A stretch of 11,051 nucleotides of DNA from a virus (Duplodnaviria; Heunggongvirae; Uroviricota; Caudoviricetes): positions 1-11,051 of the IMG/VR virus record IMGVR_UViG_2671180296_000007. One strand, 5' to 3'. Numbering within the stretch: the first letter of the stretch is position 1; every line of letters begins with the position of its first letter. The notes beneath the pieces were generated by a model. That model was not told the origin of the DNA and did no database searches. It worked only from the letters and a program-made list of their open reading frames with translations. The position numbers and the translations under genes were made by a program. Below, one piece after another: positions 3,778 to 11,051 of this stretch.

Positions 3778-4077
3778 ATGAAACTTAAATATTCTGGCTT
3801 AACTGCCAGTGGCAACACTCACCCTAAATTTACGCGCGGTGATATTTACCGCGACCAGTACGGCGGCACGGTAATGATTAAGGGCGTGGCGGGACGGTGC
3901 GTAACTTACCGCCGTGAAGGTTACGAATATGATTGCGTGATGCCTGTTTATCAGTTCCGGCGTGATTTTTCTCTGGTACAGGCAGCGCCCCGCAGTAAAC
4001 CAACCAGCAGGGAGAAAGCACGCGCCAATATTCAGAAGATGAAAACCATGATTAAAGGATTCAGGGGTAAAAAATGA
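3778..4077 (+). CDS. Hypothetical small protein (99 aa), translationally coupled to the primase
   Basis: GGAG 3762-3765 upstream of ATG 3778. The stop overlaps the primase start in an ATGA motif (4074-4077). Confidence 0.6.
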   Translation: MKLKYSGLTASGNTHPKFTRGDIYRDQYGGTVMIKGVAGRCVTYRREGYEYDCVMPVYQFRRDFSLVQAAPRSKPTSREKARANIQKMKTMIKGFRGKK

Positions 4078-5828
4078 AACTGGCACCGAACGTAAAACAG
4101 CAGTCACGCGGCATAAAACACAAAGAAACAGAAGTCATTATTTTTGCGGGTAGTGATGCCTGGTCACACGCGAAACAATGGCAGGAACATGATGCGCGTA
4201 TGGCCGGAGATAATGAGCCTCCTGTGTGGCTTGGGGAGCAGCAGCTATCCGAACTGGATAATCTGCAAATTGTGCCGGAAGGCCGAAAATCAGCACGCAT
4301 ATACAGGGCCGGATATCTTGCGCCAGTAATGATAAAGGCGATTGGCCAGAAGCTGGCGGCGGCAGGCGTACAGGATGCAAATTTTTACCCTGATGGTATG
4401 CACGGTCAGAAGGTGGAGAACTGGAGCGAATATCTGGCCCGTGAGCGCCAGAATCTTTCTGATGGTCTGGTCATTGAGCTTCCGGTAATGCAAAAGGCGC
4501 AACTTTCGCAGATGGCGGACAGTGAGCGCGCACAGATGCTTGCTGGTCGATTTGATGGCGTTTGTGTGCATCCGGAAAGTGAAATCGTTCACGTATGGCG
4601 CGGCGGGGTATGGTGTCCGGTCAGCACAATGGAACTTAGCCGCGAAATGGTGGCGATCTATTCAGAGCACAGGGCCACTTTCAGCAAGCGCGTAATCAAT
4701 AACGCCGTGGAAGCGTTAAAAGTTATTGCCGAACCAATGGGCGAGCCGTCCGGCGATTTGTTGCCGTTCGCCAATGGTGCGCTTGACCTGAAAACGGGGG
4801 AATTTTCCCCGCACACGCCGGAGAACTGGATCACCACGCACAACGGCATTGAGTACACGCCACCAGCACCTGGGGAGAACATCCGCGATAACGCGCCAAA
4901 CTTTCATAAATGGCTTGAGCACGCAGCCGGAAAAGACCCGCGCAAGATGATGCGTATATGTGCCGCGCTGTACATGATTATGGCGAACCGGTACGACTGG
5001 CAGATGTTTATTGAGGCCACCGGAGACGGCGGGAGCGGTAAAAGTACATTCACGCACATAGCCAGCCTTCTGGCAGGGAAACAGAACACGGTGAGCGCGG
5101 AGATGACATCGCTTGATGATGCTGGTGGACGTGCGCAGGTTGTCGGGAGTCGTCTTATCGTCCTGGCTGACCAGCCGAAATATACAGGCGAAGGAACGGG
5201 CATCAAGAAAATCACGGGCGGCGACCCCGTGGAAATAAACCCGAAATATGAGAAGCGTTTTACGGCGGTAATCAGGGCGGTGGTGCTGGCTACCAACAAT
5301 AACCCGATGATATTCACCGAACGGGCCGGAGGTGTGTCACGTCGTCGCGTAATTTTCCGTTTCGACAATATCGTCAGTGAGGCCGAAAAAGACAGGGAGC
5401 TACCGGAAAAGATTGCGGCTGAAATCCCTGTCATTATCCGCCGATTGCTGGCGAACTTTACCGACCCTGAGAAGGCACGGGCTTTACTACTGGAACAGCG
5501 TGACGGTGATGAAGCACTGGCAATAAAGCAACAGACGGATCCGGTTATTGAGTTTTGCCAGTTCCTGAATTTTCTGGAGGAAGCGCGCGGCCTGATGATG
5601 GGTGGCGGTGGTGATTCAGTGAAGTACACGACCAGGAACAGCCTTTATCGCGTCTATCTGGCGTTTATGGCGTACGCAGGCAGGAGCAAACCGCTAAACG
5701 TAAATGACTTTGGCAAGGCTATGAAGCCAGCCGCGAAAGTTTACGGACATGAATATATTACGCGGAAAGTTAAGGGAGTAACGCAGACTAACGCAATAAC
5801 AACAGACGAGTGCGACGCGTTTTTATAA
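4074..5828 (+). CDS. DNA primase/helicase, P4-alpha C-terminal type (D5_N-like domain plus SF3 P-loop NTPase)
   Basis: 584 aa. Walker A GDGGSGKST (about 5018-5046), Walker B-like LIVLADQP, downstream NNNP motif. Overall resemblance to phage/plasmid primase P4-family C-terminal domain proteins (PICI pri-rep type). Confidence 0.85.
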   Translation: MKLAPNVKQQSRGIKHKETEVIIFAGSDAWSHAKQWQEHDARMAGDNEPPVWLGEQQLSELDNLQIVPEGRKSARIYRAGYLAPVMIKAIGQKLAAAGVQDANFYPDGMHGQKVENWSEYLARERQNLSDGLVIELPVMQKAQLSQMADSERAQMLAGRFDGVCVHPESEIVHVWRGGVWCPVSTMELSREMVAIYSEHRATFSKRVINNAVEALKVIAEPMGEPSGDLLPFANGALDLKTGEFSPHTPENWITTHNGIEYTPPAPGENIRDNAPNFHKWLEHAAGKDPRKMMRICAALYMIMANRYDWQMFIEATGDGGSGKSTFTHIASLLAGKQNTVSAEMTSLDDAGGRAQVVGSRLIVLADQPKYTGEGTGIKKITGGDPVEINPKYEKRFTAVIRAVVLATNNNPMIFTERAGGVSRRRVIFRFDNIVSEAEKDRELPEKIAAEIPVIIRRLLANFTDPEKARALLLEQRDGDEALAIKQQTDPVIEFCQFLNFLEEARGLMMGGGGDSVKYTTRNSLYRVYLAFMAYAGRSKPLNVNDFGKAMKPAAKVYGHEYITRKVKGVTQTNAITTDECDAFL

Positions 5829-6116: not shown

Positions 6117-6395
6117 ATGCACACTTCAGGGAAATTTAATAAATCACTCAAAAAACGCAGAGACAGAACAGAACCGAAATATCGCGCGTTAGACATGACA
6201 GAGCACGCTTTAAAGGTGGCAATCAGAACGATAGACCGCCACGCGGGGGAAGGATACGCGAAAGCACATCCCGACCTGATAAGCGCATTCATGACCACGA
6301 CGGCGGCAAATTTTGCCACGCTGACAGAGCGGGAGATTGCCGAAGCGGAACAGGTAACAACAATCAACGTTAAAACCGGAGAGGTGGAATCATGA
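6117..6395 (+). CDS. Hypothetical protein (92 aa)
   Basis: GAGGGGG upstream of ATG 6117. Stop overlaps the ssb start (ATGA at 6392-6395). No family recognised. Confidence 0.55.
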   Translation: MHTSGKFNKSLKKRRDRTEPKYRALDMTEHALKVAIRTIDRHAGEGYAKAHPDLISAFMTTTAANFATLTEREIAEAEQVTTINVKTGEVES

Positions 6396-6814
6396 CAGCA
6401 CAGATAGCCGCTTACGGGCGGCTGGTGGACGACCCGCAGGTAAAACAGACCAGCAAGGGCACACCGATGACGCTGGCGCGTATGGCGGTCCCCCTTCCGT
6501 GCAGCCAGGCAGATGACGGAACGGCGACGATGTGGTTATCCGTCCTGGCATTTGGCAGACAGGCCGAAGCACTGGAAAGGCACCGCAAGGGTGAACTCCT
6601 GAGCGTGGCGGGTAACATGCAGATCAGCCAGTGGACTGGGCAGAACGGAGAAACGCGGCAGGGCTGGCAGGTTATCGCAGACAGTGTAATCAGTGCGCGA
6701 ACGGCGCGACTGGGCGGCAAAAAAGGTCAACAGGGCCAGGCTACTGACGCGCTGAACAGGGCAAAACAACAGGCGGGGAATGATGATCCGTACGGGGATA
6801 ACATACCGTTTTAA
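6392..6814 (+). CDS. ssb: Single-stranded DNA-binding protein (SSB-like OB fold)
   Basis: 140 aa. Pattern GRLVDDPQVKQT..G...LARMAV...W..VLAFGRQAE......KGELLSVAG.....W....G..R follows the SSB OB-fold signature. Gly/Gln-rich linker and C-terminal DDPYGDNIPF, resembling the acidic ...DDDIPF tip of E. coli SSB. Confidence 0.8.
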   Translation: MTAQIAAYGRLVDDPQVKQTSKGTPMTLARMAVPLPCSQADDGTATMWLSVLAFGRQAEALERHRKGELLSVAGNMQISQWTGQNGETRQGWQVIADSVISARTARLGGKKGQQGQATDALNRAKQQAGNDDPYGDNIPF

Positions 6815-6900: not shown

Positions 6901-7032
6901 AAAAAAGCGCATTTTTGTGATTTTATCGTCATCATCATCATGAGCGTAATTTATTGTTTTTAATTGTTTTGATGCAAAAAAGATGATGTTTGTGGTTAAT
7001 TTTTGTTCGACATCTTTGCAGGCAGATAAAAA

Positions 7033-7069
7033 AGCCCGATAAGGTCAGAGGTGGCTTATCGGGCTTTTG
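7033..7069. terminator. Bidirectional terminator-like hairpin
   Basis: Stem agcccgataag (7033-7043) / cttatcgggct (7055-7065) flanked by an A-run upstream and a T-run downstream. Confidence 0.5.
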
Positions 7070-7100
7070 CATATGAGGCTTTTTGGTGCACTGACACACA

Positions 7101-7198
7101 TGATCGGGATCATCATTTCATAATTTGCAACACAACTCAACATCATTGCATAAAATGCAATCATGATTATAATCATAACTGGATGAACATCCAGTTAT
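7101..7198 (+). promoter_or_regulatory. Near-consensus sigma70-like promoter with nested palindromic operators upstream of the capsid operon
   Basis: -35 TTGCAT (7146-7151), 16-bp spacer, -10 TATAAT (7168-7173). Palindromes: TGATCggGATCA (7101-7112), TTGCATaaaATGCAA (7146-7160), ATGATTATAATCAT (7163-7176), and a perfect 11-2-11 ATAACTGGATGaaCATCCAGTTAT (7175-7198) over the predicted transcription start. Confidence 0.5.
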
Positions 7199-7229
7199 GA
7201 TTTTTTAAGTCAAAGAGGAATTTCTTACT

Positions 7230-7436
7230 ATGGCTGAAGAGAAAAAAGGCGGTGTTTCGGTGTACATAAGCCCCGAAATCGTGGAGGTGCTCAAGCAGCG
7301 CCACAAAAAAAACTATGAGGCTGGCGTGGCGGCTGGACTGGATCCGCTGATGACGCCGGAGCCGTCGATAGGTTCACTTGTACGCTCTTATTTACTTGCG
7401 GCGCTTGGGATGCATAAAAATTATGGGGGTGAATAA
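7230..7436 (+). CDS. Hypothetical small protein (68 aa), first gene of the capsid operon
   Basis: AAGAGGAA (7213-7220) upstream of ATG 7230. Stop overlaps the capsid gene start (TAATG). No family recognised. Confidence 0.55.
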   Translation: MAEEKKGGVSVYISPEIVEVLKQRHKKNYEAGVAAGLDPLMTPEPSIGSLVRSYLLAALGMHKNYGGE

Positions 7437-8491
7437 TGGCAGGCAAAGCAACGGCACTTAACACTAACCAGCTTTTCGCGTACCTGAATCGCGGGGATAT
7501 TGCGGAATTTAAATTCAGTCCGCTGTTTACCACGCTGTTTTTCCCGAACGTGGCGACATTCAACACCCAAAGCATCATGCTGGACACCCTGGACATTGAA
7601 GAGGTTACGATGTCGGCGTTTTGTTCGCCTATGGTGGGTAGTCAGGTCCAGCGCGATAAAGGGTACGAAACCAGCACGATTAAACCTGGATACATGAAGC
7701 CGAAGCACGAAATCGATCCAACGAAAACCATCATGCGTATGGCTGGAGAAGATCCGGCACAGCTTAATGACCCAACCTATCGCCGTATGCGCCTGATTAC
7801 TGGCAACATGCGCCGCCAGATAAACGCGATTAAAGCGCGCGTGGAATGGCTGGCGGTGAATGCGGTAACGACCGGAAAAAACATCATTGAGGGCGAAGGC
7901 ATAGAACGCTATGAAATCGACTGGAAGATACCGGAAAAAAACATCATAGAGCAGGCCAAAGGCCGTAAATGGTCCGAGCAGGACAAAGAAACCCACGATC
8001 CAATCTATGATATCGAGCTTTATGCGGATCAAGCAGGTTGCCCCTCCAACGTCATGATCATGGGCGCTGAGGTATGGCGAACGTTACGCAGCTTTAAAAA
8101 ATTCCGCGAACTGTACGATCTTTCCCGTGGTTCAGAGTCCTCCGCAGAGCTGGCCTGTAAAAACCTGGGCGAAGTGGTGAGCTTTAAAGGATATCTGGGC
8201 GATATTGCCCTTATCGTCTATTCCGGCAAATACACTGACAGCGACGGCACCGAAAAATATTTCCTTGAGCCTGATTTGCTGGTCCTGGGCAACACCAACA
8301 ATAAAGGGCTGGTGGCCTATGGTGCGATTATGGATCAGGAAGCGGTCAGAACGGGCGCAACGCAAAACATGTTTTACCCGAAAAACTGGATTGAGGACGG
8401 CGATCCGGCGATTGAGTACGTGCAGACGCACAGCGCACCGCAGCCGGTTCCGGCAGATATTCGCAAATTTGTTACCGTCAAAATTGGTTAA
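7436..8491 (+). CDS. Major capsid protein, lambda gpE family
   Basis: 351 aa. Matches to lambda E recalled from memory: FKFSPLFTTLFF (lambda FKFDPLFLRLFF), PGYMKPKHEI (PGYVKPKHEV), DPTYRRMR (DPAYRRRR), SFKGYLGDIALIVYSGKY (SYKGMYGDVAIVVYSGQY), YPKNW, and full-length collinearity. GGGGG RBS 6 nt upstream. Confidence 0.9.
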   Translation: MAGKATALNTNQLFAYLNRGDIAEFKFSPLFTTLFFPNVATFNTQSIMLDTLDIEEVTMSAFCSPMVGSQVQRDKGYETSTIKPGYMKPKHEIDPTKTIMRMAGEDPAQLNDPTYRRMRLITGNMRRQINAIKARVEWLAVNAVTTGKNIIEGEGIERYEIDWKIPEKNIIEQAKGRKWSEQDKETHDPIYDIELYADQAGCPSNVMIMGAEVWRTLRSFKKFRELYDLSRGSESSAELACKNLGEVVSFKGYLGDIALIVYSGKYTDSDGTEKYFLEPDLLVLGNTNNKGLVAYGAIMDQEAVRTGATQNMFYPKNWIEDGDPAIEYVQTHSAPQPVPADIRKFVTVKIG

Positions 8492-8502
8492 CGGGGGATT
8501 CT

Positions 8503-8838
8503 ATGGACACTCCATACATTGAGTTATTTGCAGGCAGTCAGCAGGTTGCCACGACGCTGGTACATTTTGCCGCTGATGCTGGCGTTATTCAGGAATTTAC
8601 CCCGCTGATGCTGGCGGACAATGGCGAATTTAAGCCGTGGGATGGTCAGGAATCTGGCAAGGCTGTTTATCTGACGGCGTATCCCGTGGACACGTCAACG
8701 CAGAAATCAGCACAGTGTTACAAGACGGGGATATTCAATATTGCCGCCGTTAACTGGCCTGAGAGCGTCGACACCGACGCGAAAAAATGTGCCGCCTTTG
8801 CGGGTTCTGGTGTATCTGTTCAGCCGCTGGCGCGATAA
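8503..8838 (+). CDS. Head decoration protein, lambda gpD family
   Basis: 111 aa. TPLMLADNGEFKPWDG and C-terminal YKTGIFNIAAVNWPESVDTDAKKCAAFAGSGVSV parallel lambda D (TPLMLDTSSRKLVAWDG ... [35 protein letters not shown]). Confidence 0.8.
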   Translation: MDTPYIELFAGSQQVATTLVHFAADAGVIQEFTPLMLADNGEFKPWDGQESGKAVYLTAYPVDTSTQKSAQCYKTGIFNIAAVNWPESVDTDAKKCAAFAGSGVSVQPLAR

Positions 8839-8851
8839 GCAGGGGGGAACG

Positions 8852-9265
8852 ATGGCAACGAATGAAAGTATCATGGCGCTACCGCTGGCGAGTAAATTTA
8901 AAGCTGAAGCGCGGGCAATGGCTGACAGATGTCTATCAACCTACGAAGCTATATATCAACTTAACAAACTGGAAGAACAGGACAAGCCGCGCGCTGATGC
9001 GATTATGTCGCTTCATGAATCTGACGACTATCAGCCGCTGTTACGTGCAATGGCAAACGTGCCTTGTATTGATGTTGATACGGCTAAAAACATCCTGAAC
9101 ATGACCATAGAACAGGAACGCCAGAAGGTTGCACCAGAGCTTACCGCAGCCTTTGAAAACTTTATGGACATGCACAGCCCACAAGCCGTATCAGCTGGCA
9201 TGGCATACGATGGCAGAAACCCGGGCGATGACGGCGACATTGATCGCATACTGAAAACCATCTGA
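8852..9265 (+). CDS. Hypothetical acidic protein (137 aa), last gene before cos
   Basis: The track ORF 8741-9265 is trimmed to ATG 8852, preceded by AGGGGGG. It is followed by a terminator and then cos. No family recognised. Confidence 0.55.
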   Translation: MATNESIMALPLASKFKAEARAMADRCLSTYEAIYQLNKLEEQDKPRADAIMSLHESDDYQPLLRAMANVPCIDVDTAKNILNMTIEQERQKVAPELTAAFENFMDMHSPQAVSAGMAYDGRNPGDDGDIDRILKTI

Positions 9266-9271
9266 GACAAG

Positions 9272-9293
9272 GCCGGAGAAATCCGGCTTTTTT
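9272..9293 (+). terminator. Rho-independent terminator
   Basis: Stem gccgga / tccggc with a GAAA loop followed by TTTTTT. Nearly identical to the terminator at 6830-6852. Confidence 0.6.
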
Positions 9294-9500
9294 GCGGGTC
9301 CTTTCCGGCATATGGACCTGTTACGGGGCGGCGACCTCGCGCGTTTTCACTATTTATGAAAATTTTTCGGGATCCATGTCCGGTTTCTCTGCAAGTTAAC
9401 CATATGAAAAATATAAAAACATGCTTTCCATGAACCGGACATGCGCAAAAAAACAGACACTAAAACCGGACATCGTACCCGTTAACCGGAAGTGTGCAAA
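9294..9500 (+). other. Lambda-type cos site, forward orientation (cosQ-like, cosN, candidate cosB)
   Basis: cosQ-like GGGTCCTTTCCGG (9296-9308). GTTACG then the 12-nt cohesive-end sequence GGGCGGCGACCT (9326-9337). Downstream TTTTCACTATTTATGAAAATTTTTCGG closely matches the lambda left end (CGCGGGTTTTCGCTATTTATGAAAATTTTCCGG). Candidate terminase-binding repeats AACCGGACAT at 9433, 9464 and 9484, with an inverted copy at 9374-9384. Confidence 0.8.
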
Positions 9501-9699
9501 AATCACACGCATTGCTGCGCGTGATTAACAATTTATCGGCTTTACTGTTCTGTATAGGCTGGGTGGCGTCATGCCGTAGCCGTTCTCCGTGCCAGCATGG
9601 AATAATCCGTAGTTACAGAGCGGTAAAGTTAAAAATCACTTTCTGTTACGCCATCAAATACGCGATACAACAACCATGTGTTTTTACAAAACCATTTGA

Positions 9700-9898
9700 T
9701 ATCATTGAATTTTTTCACATTAATGACATCAAAATACATCGTAAGGTTGTTGTATTTATTTTATTTTATTTTTACCTTACTTATCAATTAGATATACCAA
9801 ACAATTAAACAACAACCACCCCATCAAAAAATCTCATAAATAGCGAAAAACCGCGAGGTCGCCGCCCCGTAACGGGCCATAATTCCTGGAAGGACCCG
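9700..9898 (-). other. Second lambda-type cos site, inverted orientation (cosQ-like, cosN, different candidate cosB)
   Basis: On the minus strand: cgggtccttccagg ... gttacgGGGCGGCGACCTcgcggtttttcgctatttatga. The cosN core is the complement of 9856-9873. The inward-facing flank carries GGTTGTTGT-type repeats (minus-strand reading), not AACCGGACAT. Confidence 0.7.
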
Positions 9899-9931
9899 AC
9901 GACACCAGACTATCAGAACGATGGGGGCACA

Positions 9932-10233: not shown

Positions 10234-10332
10234 ATGCAAATTTGCACTCTGGCCTAACCCGTTAATATTTCAGCAAAGTGCAAATTTGCGTTCTGTAGCT
10301 GGTGGCTGGCAGAATGTAAATTTACATTCTGG
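10234..10332. repeat. Three tandem about 19-bp repeats, each containing a 12-bp palindrome
   Basis: aTGCAAATTTGCActctgg (10234-10252), gTGCAAATTTGCgttctg (10279-10296), aTGTAAATTTACAttctgg (10314-10332). They lie in a convergent intergenic region between the stops of the flanking genes. Confidence 0.6.
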
Positions 10333-10336
10333 TGAT

Positions 10337-10636
10337 TTAATCATCTGATTTACCCAGCCCGTACCGGATTACCGTACAGTGAGCGCCATCGCTACCGATA
10401 CGCACATCAAAGCGGGGTTCGCGCACTTTCACGCGGTACAGGATCCCATCATTTACCATAGCGTTTAACGTTCGTCGGGTTGCCTCTATGTGATATCGCT
10501 GATATTCGGAACCATAGAGCAGCACTGTCACACCACGAACATCAAAAGGCGGATCTCCGGCCTCCACCCGCACCCAATCGCGATATTCAGGTTTGTAAAG
10601 TTCAAGAATCTGTTTTTTGTGCCTGGTCATTCTCAT
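10337..10636 (-). CDS. Hypothetical protein (99 aa)
   Basis: The track ORF is trimmed to ATG 10636 (MRMTRHKK...), which has AAGGAA 7 nt upstream on the minus strand. The longer N-terminal extension is hydrophobic and low-complexity and lacks an RBS. No family recognised. Confidence 0.5.
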   Translation of the reverse strand: MRMTRHKKQILELYKPEYRDWVRVEAGDPPFDVRGVTVLLYGSEYQRYHIEATRRTLNAMVNDGILYRVKVREPRFDVRIGSDGAHCTVIRYGLGKSDD

Positions 10637-10742
10637 GTGTGATTCCTTATTGTGGGACAGTACTGTCATACAATAAGCTATGAGGGAAATTATCAAAAGA
10701 ACGGAAACCAACCATTCAGATTTAACAGGTATCAATGGGATT

Positions 10743-11051
10743 ATGCTTATGGTGCATGATGACAAAGCGGAAGAACTGGAAGCGAAAGGTTTATGGCGAC
10801 GGGCGGCTAATCGCTGGGGTGAGTTACTGAAACAGGCGGCAAGTGATGAAGCGCGTCAGTATGTAACGGAACGACGAACGGCATGTATCCGGAAGGCAAC
10901 CATAACCCGGGAACCGGAAAGAGACCTGATTTGTGCCATAAGAACCGCCGCCACAAAAACACTAACGGACATGGGGATCGACCTGAAAAAAGAAGATCCA
11001 CTGCGGGGCATTCAGCACGGACATACAAAGCGGGATAAACGCAGGAAGTAA
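10743..11051 (+). CDS. PerC-family transcriptional regulator-like protein
   Basis: N-terminal AEELEAKGLWRRAANRWGELL recalls the conserved PerC/Pch-family motif, from memory and not searched. Start is uncertain (10680, 10743 or 10749); 10743 is chosen to leave room for a divergent promoter. The perfect palindrome GACAGTACTGTC (10656-10667) lies in the intergenic region. Confidence 0.45.
   Translation: MLMVHDDKAEELEAKGLWRRAANRWGELLKQAASDEARQYVTERRTACIRKATITREPERDLICAIRTAATKTLTDMGIDLKKEDPLRGIQHGHTKRDKRRK

Follow-up and report, generated by a model that had tools for sequence, protein, structure and literature searches.

Gram-negative phage-inducible chromosomal islands (PICIs) carry capsid homologues downstream of their replication origin, and how this region is switched on is undescribed in the papers searched. 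In the prototype of these islands, EcCICFT073, it also holds the lambda-blocking gene c1503. We address the question in an 11,051-nt stretch of viral DNA from the IMG/VR record IMGVR_UViG_2671180296_000007 (hereafter, the window), which is a phage satellite, an EcCICFT073-type PICI of E. coli. The region that controls its capsid ('late') operon lies at 7110–7229. We read the promoter in this region, from its sequence, as a sigma-70 promoter that is probably (at roughly 70%) repressed by the host LexA protein at 7177–7196. A host LexA operator would give a simple answer to how the capsid region is switched on.

A promoter under a predicted LexA box

A reading of the sequence alone had placed a near-consensus TTGCAT-16-TATAAT promoter in front of the capsid genes of a phage satellite. 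Both hexamers and the spacer are found on the plus strand (7146–7173), with the -35 hexamer TTGCAT at 7146–7151 and the -10 hexamer TATAAT, 16 nt after it, at 7168–7173. The genetic setting also agrees: the island carries int, alpA, a D5-type primase gene and SSB, followed by an open reading frame (ORF) for a 68-amino-acid (68-aa) protein, a lambda-E-like capsid gene and a gpD-like gene. The label 'near-consensus' suits the -10 (6/6) but not the -35, which matches TTGACA at only 3/6 positions, nor the spacer of 16. A consensus promoter scan of the window, with a 4/6 minimum for the -35, left the site unlisted because of its 3/6 hexamer and 16-nt spacer, and promoter-like sites across the whole window were not above chance (11 found versus 13.2 expected). 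The promoter is made credible by its position, with a strong terminator (7023–7075) before it and the Shine-Dalgarno sequence and start codon of the operon's first gene after it, and by its conservation. E. coli genomes, IMG/VR contigs and NCBI assemblies supplied more than 170 related loci, whose control regions gave 37 distinct 78-bp core sequences. TATAAT is identical in 36 of these 37 variants (the other has TGTAAT) and the TTGC of the -35 is present in all of them. Hexamers, 16-nt spacer and placement before a gene and after a terminator are all as in a sigma-70 promoter, whose predicted transcription start lies near 7180 (7178–7182). The -10 is 57 nt from the start codon of the first ORF, which is preceded by the Shine-Dalgarno sequence AGAGGA (7214–7219, plus strand; AAGAGGAATTTC is conserved among relatives).

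The predicted start site is spanned by a predicted LexA (SOS) box, AACTGGATGAACATCCAGTT, which occupies 7177–7196 and begins 3 bp after TATAAT. It has the E. coli form CTG-N10-CAG (CTG at 7179–7181, CAG at 7192–7194), that is, the 16-bp core of a 20-bp imperfect palindrome like TACTG(TA)5CAGTA. LexA boxes overlapping the -10 or the start site repress several known SOS promoters, among them those of lexA and the colicins. The site was scored with a heterology index (HI) matrix that we derived from the 18 E. coli SOS boxes listed in Table 4 of PMC3009722. Its HI of 6.98 lies among those of the 18 known boxes (0.27–8.51 on the same matrix, and up to 12.6 in leave-one-out scoring). For example, the ruvA box CGCTGGATATCTATCCAGCA scores 6.54 and has the CTGGAT....ATCCAG arms in common with 7177–7196. 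On a matrix that is similar to ours, not identical, LexA binders of E. coli K-12 have an HI around 7.3 and non-binders around 22 (PMC12527982). The best site in 1000 shuffled windows had a median HI of 13.1, and only 0.2% of the shuffled windows reached 6.98 or less (P = 0.002); in shuffles of the local A+T-rich 130 bp the fraction was 0.03% (P = 0.0003). The capsid-promoter box has the second-best HI in the window. Furthermore, in five full-length islands with their flanks (16–18 kb each), the only sites with an HI below 10.5 are this box and one or two others in the int-alpA intergenic region.

Three perfect palindromes overlap the promoter, as the sequence-only reading had noticed. Dyad A (7-3-7, ATTGCAT-AAA-ATGCAAT, 7145–7161) contains the -35 hexamer, and dyad B (7-0-7, ATGATTA/TAATCAT, 7163–7176) is centred on the -10. 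The third had been described as an 11-2-11 dyad over the start site within a region that closed at 7198, but it is a 15-2-15 palindrome of 32 bp (AATCATAACTGGATG-AA-CATCCAGTTATGATT) that runs from 7171 to 7202 and extends the LexA box outward by AATCAT/ATGATT. Its 15-nt arms are the longest of any palindrome in the window, and arms reached no more than 13 in 300 dinucleotide shuffles. Positions 7100–7229 hold eight records of perfect palindromes whose arms are 6 nt or longer (three nested sets and one more) versus 0.62 expected, a density seen in 0 of 2000 local shuffles. The long perfect palindrome is probably the intrinsically palindromic LexA box plus its flanking bases, and the RNA hairpin that it can form is probably incidental.

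These features retain one part of the earlier proposal of repressor control over the capsid genes and displace another. The start-site dyad is operator-like, but a repressor encoded by the helper or the island is not supported as the induction sensor, since the core of the dyad is a canonical host LexA box. The suggestion that the same dyad might be found in a helper genome fails for lambda, which is known to serve EcCICFT073-type islands as a helper and carries none of the dyads even at 2–9 mismatches. A blastn search of 7080–7235 against 50,697 phage records returned just short, chance-level matches, and a 17-mer scan of IMG/VR recovered the PICIs themselves and unrelated environmental contigs. 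The island holds no further copies of the dyads or of the conserved element upstream of the promoter (7110–7131), and no motif in common with the alpA promoter region.

We propose that the sigma-70 promoter TTGCAT-16 nt-TATAAT would start transcription near 7180. In undamaged cells, a host LexA dimer on 7177–7196, lying across the start site, would shut the promoter. DNA damage would activate RecA, LexA would cleave itself and the promoter would open, allowing the 68-aa protein, the capsid and decoration homologues and the products of the downstream genes to be made. The capsid operon would then be expressed simultaneously with the induction of SOS-inducible lambdoid helper prophages. The motifs, their statistics and their conservation can be read directly; the start site, LexA binding and SOS inducibility we infer from them.

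A LexA-repressed promoter of this type is a known kind of control, the Gram-negative counterpart of operon I of the staphylococcal PICIs (SaPIs), and not a new mechanism. SaPI operon I, which serves capsid morphogenesis and packaging, is LexA-controlled according to the title of Ubeda et al. (2007; bib30 in PMC6739421). The premise that such operons usually depend on an activator is therefore at odds with the closest precedent, which is LexA-repressed. Both are PICI morphogenesis/packaging operons that follow the replication module, with a host LexA box in their own promoter and hence derepression, predicted for the operon here, by the SOS signal that induces helper prophages as well. They differ in the host, which is Gram-negative here and accounts for the E. 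coli-type box CTG-N10-CAG, and in content (cpm, ptiA and terS in the SaPIs; lambda gpE-like, gpD-like and scaffold-like genes here). They also differ in that LexA control is predicted for our operon and its box is missing in three related lineages. If the prediction is true, Gram-positive and Gram-negative PICIs independently reached the same timing of morphogenesis genes with helper prophage induction.

The box type, CTGGAT...(A/C)CCAG, with a similar HI and an overlap with the core promoter, also recalls the boxes of E. coli ruvAB (CGCTGGATATCTATCCAGCA) and cho (CACTGGATAGATAACCAGCA). These promoters drive DNA repair genes, in contrast to the capsid genes of a mobile element, and lack the extension of the box into a 32-bp perfect palindrome and the two additional dyads over the -35 and -10. 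Mobile elements with LexA-repressed promoters include colicin operons, integron integrases and some temperate phages such as GIL01. Like them, the island would use the host SOS repressor directly and need no damage sensor of its own, but the genes under control here are satellite capsid homologues.

Published work on EcCICFT073 concerns AlpA, replication, cos packaging and Rpp, not control of the capsid promoter (Fillol-Salom et al., 2018, 2019). In the papers that could be searched (subscription-only literature lay outside the search), we found nothing on the expression of c1498–c1500 or on LexA control in Gram-negative PICIs, and the same literature gave no start-site or expression data for the capsid-promoter locus. 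The word 'LexA' occurs once in each EcCICFT073 paper that contains it, and in PMC6739421 that occurrence is in the reference list (bib30). The control of this promoter also has practical relevance, as engineered PICI 'drones' carry their cargo here (replacements of c1498–c1501), and LexA repression of the native promoter would make the expression of such cargo depend on SOS.

Conservation of the control region in related islands

The sequence-only reading had made its case depend on conservation of the palindromes in related islands, and this holds for the LexA core more than for the flanks of the large dyad. Twelve of the 13 box variants keep an HI of 5.2–9.2 at the same position, the exception being a 1-bp insertion, whereas the outer pair 7176/7197 is unpaired in 16 of the 37 control-region variants. 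The outer pair of dyad B (7163/7176) varies as well: 13 variants have A..T, 11 have C..G and the other 13 do not pair. The box reads GACTGGATGAAAATCCAGTA (HI 6.69) in a clade from Salmonella whose capsid is 68% identical and whose flanks have diverged. EcCICFT073 has, upstream of the gene preceding c1499, the same TATAAT and an identical 32-bp palindrome and box, with TTGCTC as the -35. A C-to-A change at 7191 (ATACAG), found in four of the 37 variants, breaks the G-C pair 7182/7191 of the hairpin and lowers the HI from 6.98 to 5.95, nearer the LexA consensus.

The most telling comparative point comes from a Lelliottia island with 59% capsid identity. Its upstream region is dissimilar to that of the window, and a different predicted LexA box, CACTGTTTTTTCATACAGTT (HI 5.8), precedes by 26 nt the ORF that opens the same operon. 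This candidate box is independent support for reading the capsid promoter as LexA-controlled. Searches for further relatives added little. A metagenome 16-mer scan gave almost solely chance matches along with two true E. coli loci, and a scan of viral contigs with the Salmonella capsid returned the same E. coli set.

Upstream of the promoter, at about -70 to -49 from the predicted start, lies the conserved plus-strand element (A)ATCATTTCATAATTTGCAAC (7110–7131). The element is near-invariant across the E. coli variants and is kept in the Salmonella clade as TTTACAAC; one subgroup is wholly divergent upstream of ~7110. It could be a UP-like element or a regulator site. Overlapping its left end, positions 7101–7114 (ATGATCGGGATCAT) have the form TGAT-N4-ATCA, a dyad like those of the FNR/CRP family, whose centre falls ~72 bp before the predicted start. 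This dyad is probably non-functional because it is perfect only in its own sublineage, most relatives having GATAATCAT.

Several observations weigh against LexA as the repressor, or as the only regulator, of the operon. Three related lineages (L413, L414 and L416) keep the promoter and dyad A without a LexA box, so LexA control is not universal in the family and other control must exist there. The first of these, an E. coli lineage with 64% capsid identity, has ATTGCAAAAAATGCAAT as dyad A at the same 16-nt spacing to TAAAAT and a decayed box; the second, from Edwardsiella, has two tandem copies of dyad A. In both, TAAAAT stands in the register of TATAAT. Four features of the window are left unexplained by LexA: the outer 6 bp of the large palindrome, dyad A, dyad B and the 7110–7131 element. 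The -35 itself, at 3/6, is weak, and the site went uncalled in the promoter scan. Finally, EcCICFT073 interferes with lambda upon infection of non-lysogens (PMC6092414). If the interference gene is in this operon, expression would also be needed without an overt SOS signal. As to what the capsid homologues do, lambda did not regain normal plaque formation when c1499 or c1500 was deleted (PMC6092414), and helper-assisted transfer reportedly does not require the capsid genes of PICIs (PMC10111431).

The hairpin and dyad A

The large palindrome is followed in the 5' leader by a run of T (7201–7206, plus strand), and the pair was flagged as terminator-like in a scan. It could be an intrinsic terminator or insulator on the plus strand that stops read-through from the early replication operon; transcripts from the embedded promoter would start in the left arm, lack the hairpin and escape termination. 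We consider this unlikely. The RNA does fold into a 14-bp hairpin followed by U's (-17.3 kcal/mol, z -5.3), and the variants from O157 and Salmonella retain -13.8 to -14.1 kcal/mol. Compensatory changes are also present. Pair 7176/7197 occurs as T-A, G-C, C-G and T-G and pair 7177/7196 as A-T, G-T and G-C, with all wobbles on the plus strand; seven cells are altered on both sides, which 0 of 500 shuffles reach. These double changes fall at two pairs of the large hairpin (four when dyad A is included), and 33 of 518 helix cells are unpaired. On the other hand, only four of the 14 stem pairs are G-C, the base of the stem is all A-U and just four U's extend beyond it. As noted above, nearly half of the variants lack pairing at 7176/7197 and four have lost the 7182/7191 G-C pair. 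Of the lineages without the box, L413 (E. coli) and L414 (Edwardsiella) retain the T-run and have no significant hairpin (z -1.0 and -0.3, respectively), and the Lelliottia region yields just -6.1 kcal/mol. The hairpin therefore tracks the LexA box rather than a conserved terminator. Furthermore, a strong terminator (7023–7075) already stands 100 nt upstream and, read by eye, the conserved module has no upstream promoter able to yield an RNA with the whole hairpin. In our reading the outer extension of the palindrome is secondary: it may be incidental, or it may insulate modestly against read-through.

The succession of -10-like hexamer, hairpin and T-run also recalls the layout of a lambdoid pR'-qut-tR' late cassette, and the helpers of the EcCICFT073 family are lambdoid (PMC6092414). 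In such a cassette the promoter would be constitutive, TATAAT would be the pause element and the hairpin a terminator that is read through with the Q protein of the helper. We regard this arrangement as most improbable. Upstream of TATAAT, the conserved region, read by eye, offers only -35/-10 pairs with spacers of 10 or 19–22 nt, or hexamers without the key -10 bases, and there is no meaningful similarity to lambda pR'. In addition, the hairpin begins inside the hexamer and not tens of nucleotides downstream. The Q-antitermination cassette was rejected for its lack of an upstream promoter and of lambda pR' similarity. No known RNA family matches the site, apart from a sub-threshold hit to GcvB on the minus strand (E 0.17).

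Dyad A raises a different question, as its conservation exceeds that of the LexA box. It is a perfect 7-3-7 dyad and the only TTGCA-N5-TGCAA in the window, with a single copy per island wherever the exact sequence occurs. Versions of it persist in L413 (ATTGCAAAAAATGCAAT), as tandem copies in L414 and in a further lineage, L415, as GTTGCATTTTATGAAAC. Symmetric substitutions are seen at its outer pair (A-T or G-C) and at its inner pair (T-A or C-G). This wide conservation and the symmetric substitutions suggest a second regulator or a structural need of the promoter. A second regulator at the -35 dyad is possible. In the stronger form of this idea, a dimeric regulator specific to the PICI or its helper would be the main switch, acting on dyad A, and perhaps on dyad B and the upstream TTTGCAAC, alone or with LexA. 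We hold this form to be tentative.

Such a regulator might come from the helper or from the island, where the first gene could act on its own promoter through its 68-aa product or a different protein could be responsible. The small first ORF accompanies the promoter in four lineages. In an AlphaFold model with a predicted local distance difference test (pLDDT) score of 73, the 68-aa protein has an extended, strand-like N-terminal segment and two helices, a predicted topology that would fit a small DNA-binding protein but is not diagnostic of one. A ribbon-helix-helix autorepressor could have this form, but the model has no significant match in the PDB by fold (best E 2.2) or sequence, and the Pfam search was empty even at E 10. 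The conservation of dyad A is in part owed to its overlap with the -35. Neither lambda nor the lambdoid prophage that neighbours EcCICFT073 in CFT073 carries the dyad. Moreover, a second regulator would leave standing the evidence that the start-site dyad is a LexA box.

The TTGCA/TGCAA motifs at 7124–7131, 7145–7151 and 7155–7161 could alternatively bind host CytR, a member of the LacI family. The half-sites resemble the published CytR octamer (GTTGCATT or AATGCAAC), and TTTGCAAC-N13-ATTGCATA fits the form AYGTGCAAC-N10-13-GTTRCATT obtained by systematic evolution of ligands by exponential enrichment (SELEX) (PMC3454398). Known CytR-regulated promoters, however, all have at least one CRP site, and mostly two that flank the CytR site (PMC3454398). 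The best CRP site at the capsid promoter, read by eye, scores 6/10 and is not conserved. The halves of dyad A are also oriented opposite to the published CytR repeat, TGCAA-N2-3-TTGCA, and CytR control of capsid genes has no biological rationale. We find CytR very unlikely and rejected it as the operator-binding protein on the missing conserved CRP sites and the half-site orientation. Look-alikes of Fur, FNR/CRP and IHF sites, read by eye, were partial, unconserved or misarranged, and were rejected as well.

LexA-like sites also occur at the other end of the island. The best HI in the window (4.68) belongs to a second candidate LexA box, AACTGTACAAAAAACCAGTA, at 1241–1260. This box overlaps the integrase stop codon and lies 30 nt upstream of a TATAAT (1290–1295) and of an 80-aa ORF (1344–1586) that precedes alpA. 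Related islands with a different integrase have LexA-like sites in the int-alpA intergenic region too; in some of them, including EcCICFT073 (TACTGTTTTTTTATACACTG), the right arm is CAC or CAT and not CAG. The alpA gene of EcCICFT073 is reportedly induced by the helper, not by SOS. It is conceivable, though doubtful, that E. coli-type PICIs tie both ends of their life cycle to host LexA (1241–1260 and 7177–7196), with dyad A as an extra, family-specific operator at the capsid promoter. Expression from that promoter would then require two inputs, DNA damage and a signal from the PICI or helper. If true, this wiring would have arisen convergently with that of SaPI operon I, which LexA controls in Gram-positive cocci, and would offer a handle on the timing of the enigmatic PICI capsid homologues. 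Induction, replication and packaging of EcCICFT073 depend on a helper phage (PMC6092414).

The island and its other features

The window has the attributes of a PICI: an island of ~10–15 kb at a specific att site, co-directional int, alpA and pri-rep genes, and an incomplete set of phage structural and lysis genes. It begins with a tyrosine integrase gene (int, 1–1242), followed by alpA (1757–1963), a gene for a DUF4222 protein, a D5_N/P4-type primase gene (4074–5828) and SSB (6392–6814). The capsid operon follows on the plus strand. Its first gene, for the 68-aa protein (7230–7436, phrog_3255), is the counterpart of the gene upstream of c1499 in EcCICFT073. The second encodes the major capsid protein homologue of the lambda gpE family (7436–8491; PF03864, E 2.7e-52; phrog_29), and the third a head decoration protein homologue of the lambda gpD family (8503–8838; PF02924, E 2.1e-18; phrog_49). 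The product of the fourth gene (8846–9265, phrog_1999) is scaffold-like and weakly matches the C-terminal part of head maturation proteases. A PerC-family regulator is encoded at the right end of the window. This gene order agrees with that of EcCICFT073, which belongs to the same island family and shares the TATAAT and the 32-bp palindrome with its LexA box. The window island differs in its location at tRNA-Pro/yejM, its integrase and the PerC gene at its right end. The island of E. coli GB089, between tRNA-Pro/yejM and yejO, has an identical gene order and 99.3% identity to the control region.

Among 5,426 complete E. coli genomes, 788 matched a 551-bp query that runs across the control region into the capsid operon. 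In many of them the match begins only at ~7028, within the G+C-rich intrinsic terminator that ends the primase-SSB module. The terminator is an inverted repeat at 7023–7075 on the plus strand (the fold of 7020–7085 has -25.1 kcal/mol, z -3.8), is kept in relatives and marks the left edge of the shared capsid module. Since many E. coli islands share sequence only from ~7028, the terminator after SSB is a recombination boundary, and the capsid module travels together with its control region from one PICI backbone to another. For example, O157:H7 islands at roxA-phoQ have another integrase, a RepA-type helicase as replication protein and PerC upstream, and share only the sequence from ~7028 onward.

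Relatives also diverge after the capsid genes. In the related islands L002, L004, L005 and L090, a TerS/Nu1-like gene ('terminase small subunit') follows the capsid module. The window island differs in having no such gene at 9266–9931: a tblastn search with the L002 protein against the whole window found nothing at E <= 1e-3. At the TerS position, GB089 has just a 70-aa hypothetical ORF. A lambda-type cos site, GGGCGGCGACCTCGCGGTTTTTCGCTATTTATGA, lies on the minus strand at ~9836–9868, in the orientation opposite to the capsid operon, and is near-identical to bases 1–33 of lambda, where cosN lies and cosB begins. The late region is longer in the Edwardsiella tarda contig (L414, 4562–8029), where the capsid and decoration genes are followed by a portal fragment, an S49 protease gene and a second decoration gene. 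This contig may represent a PICI that adjoins a prophage or sits inside one, or else a PICI of an 'elongated' kind.

Three further features of the window lie away from the capsid promoter. Rfam matches above the gathering score identify isrK (2808–2884, 80 bits) and the C4 antisense RNA (2906–2993, 73 bits), and a match to the c4-a1b1 target (2795–2847) is slightly under it (42.9 versus 46.7 bits). Judged by these matches, 2795–2993 looks like a P1/P4-type antisense immunity cassette in an Icd-like region of the island. Just upstream of alpA, direct repeats GGGTACCGTTTTAAAACGGTGGGTACTGTTTTT at 1655–1700, unrelated to the capsid promoter motifs, are possible sites of AlpA autoregulation. The second-longest palindrome of the window, a perfect 11-0-11 at 10310–10331, is intergenic and lies just downstream of a minus-strand 142-aa ORF (10337–10765), ~350 nt upstream of the PerC-family gene.

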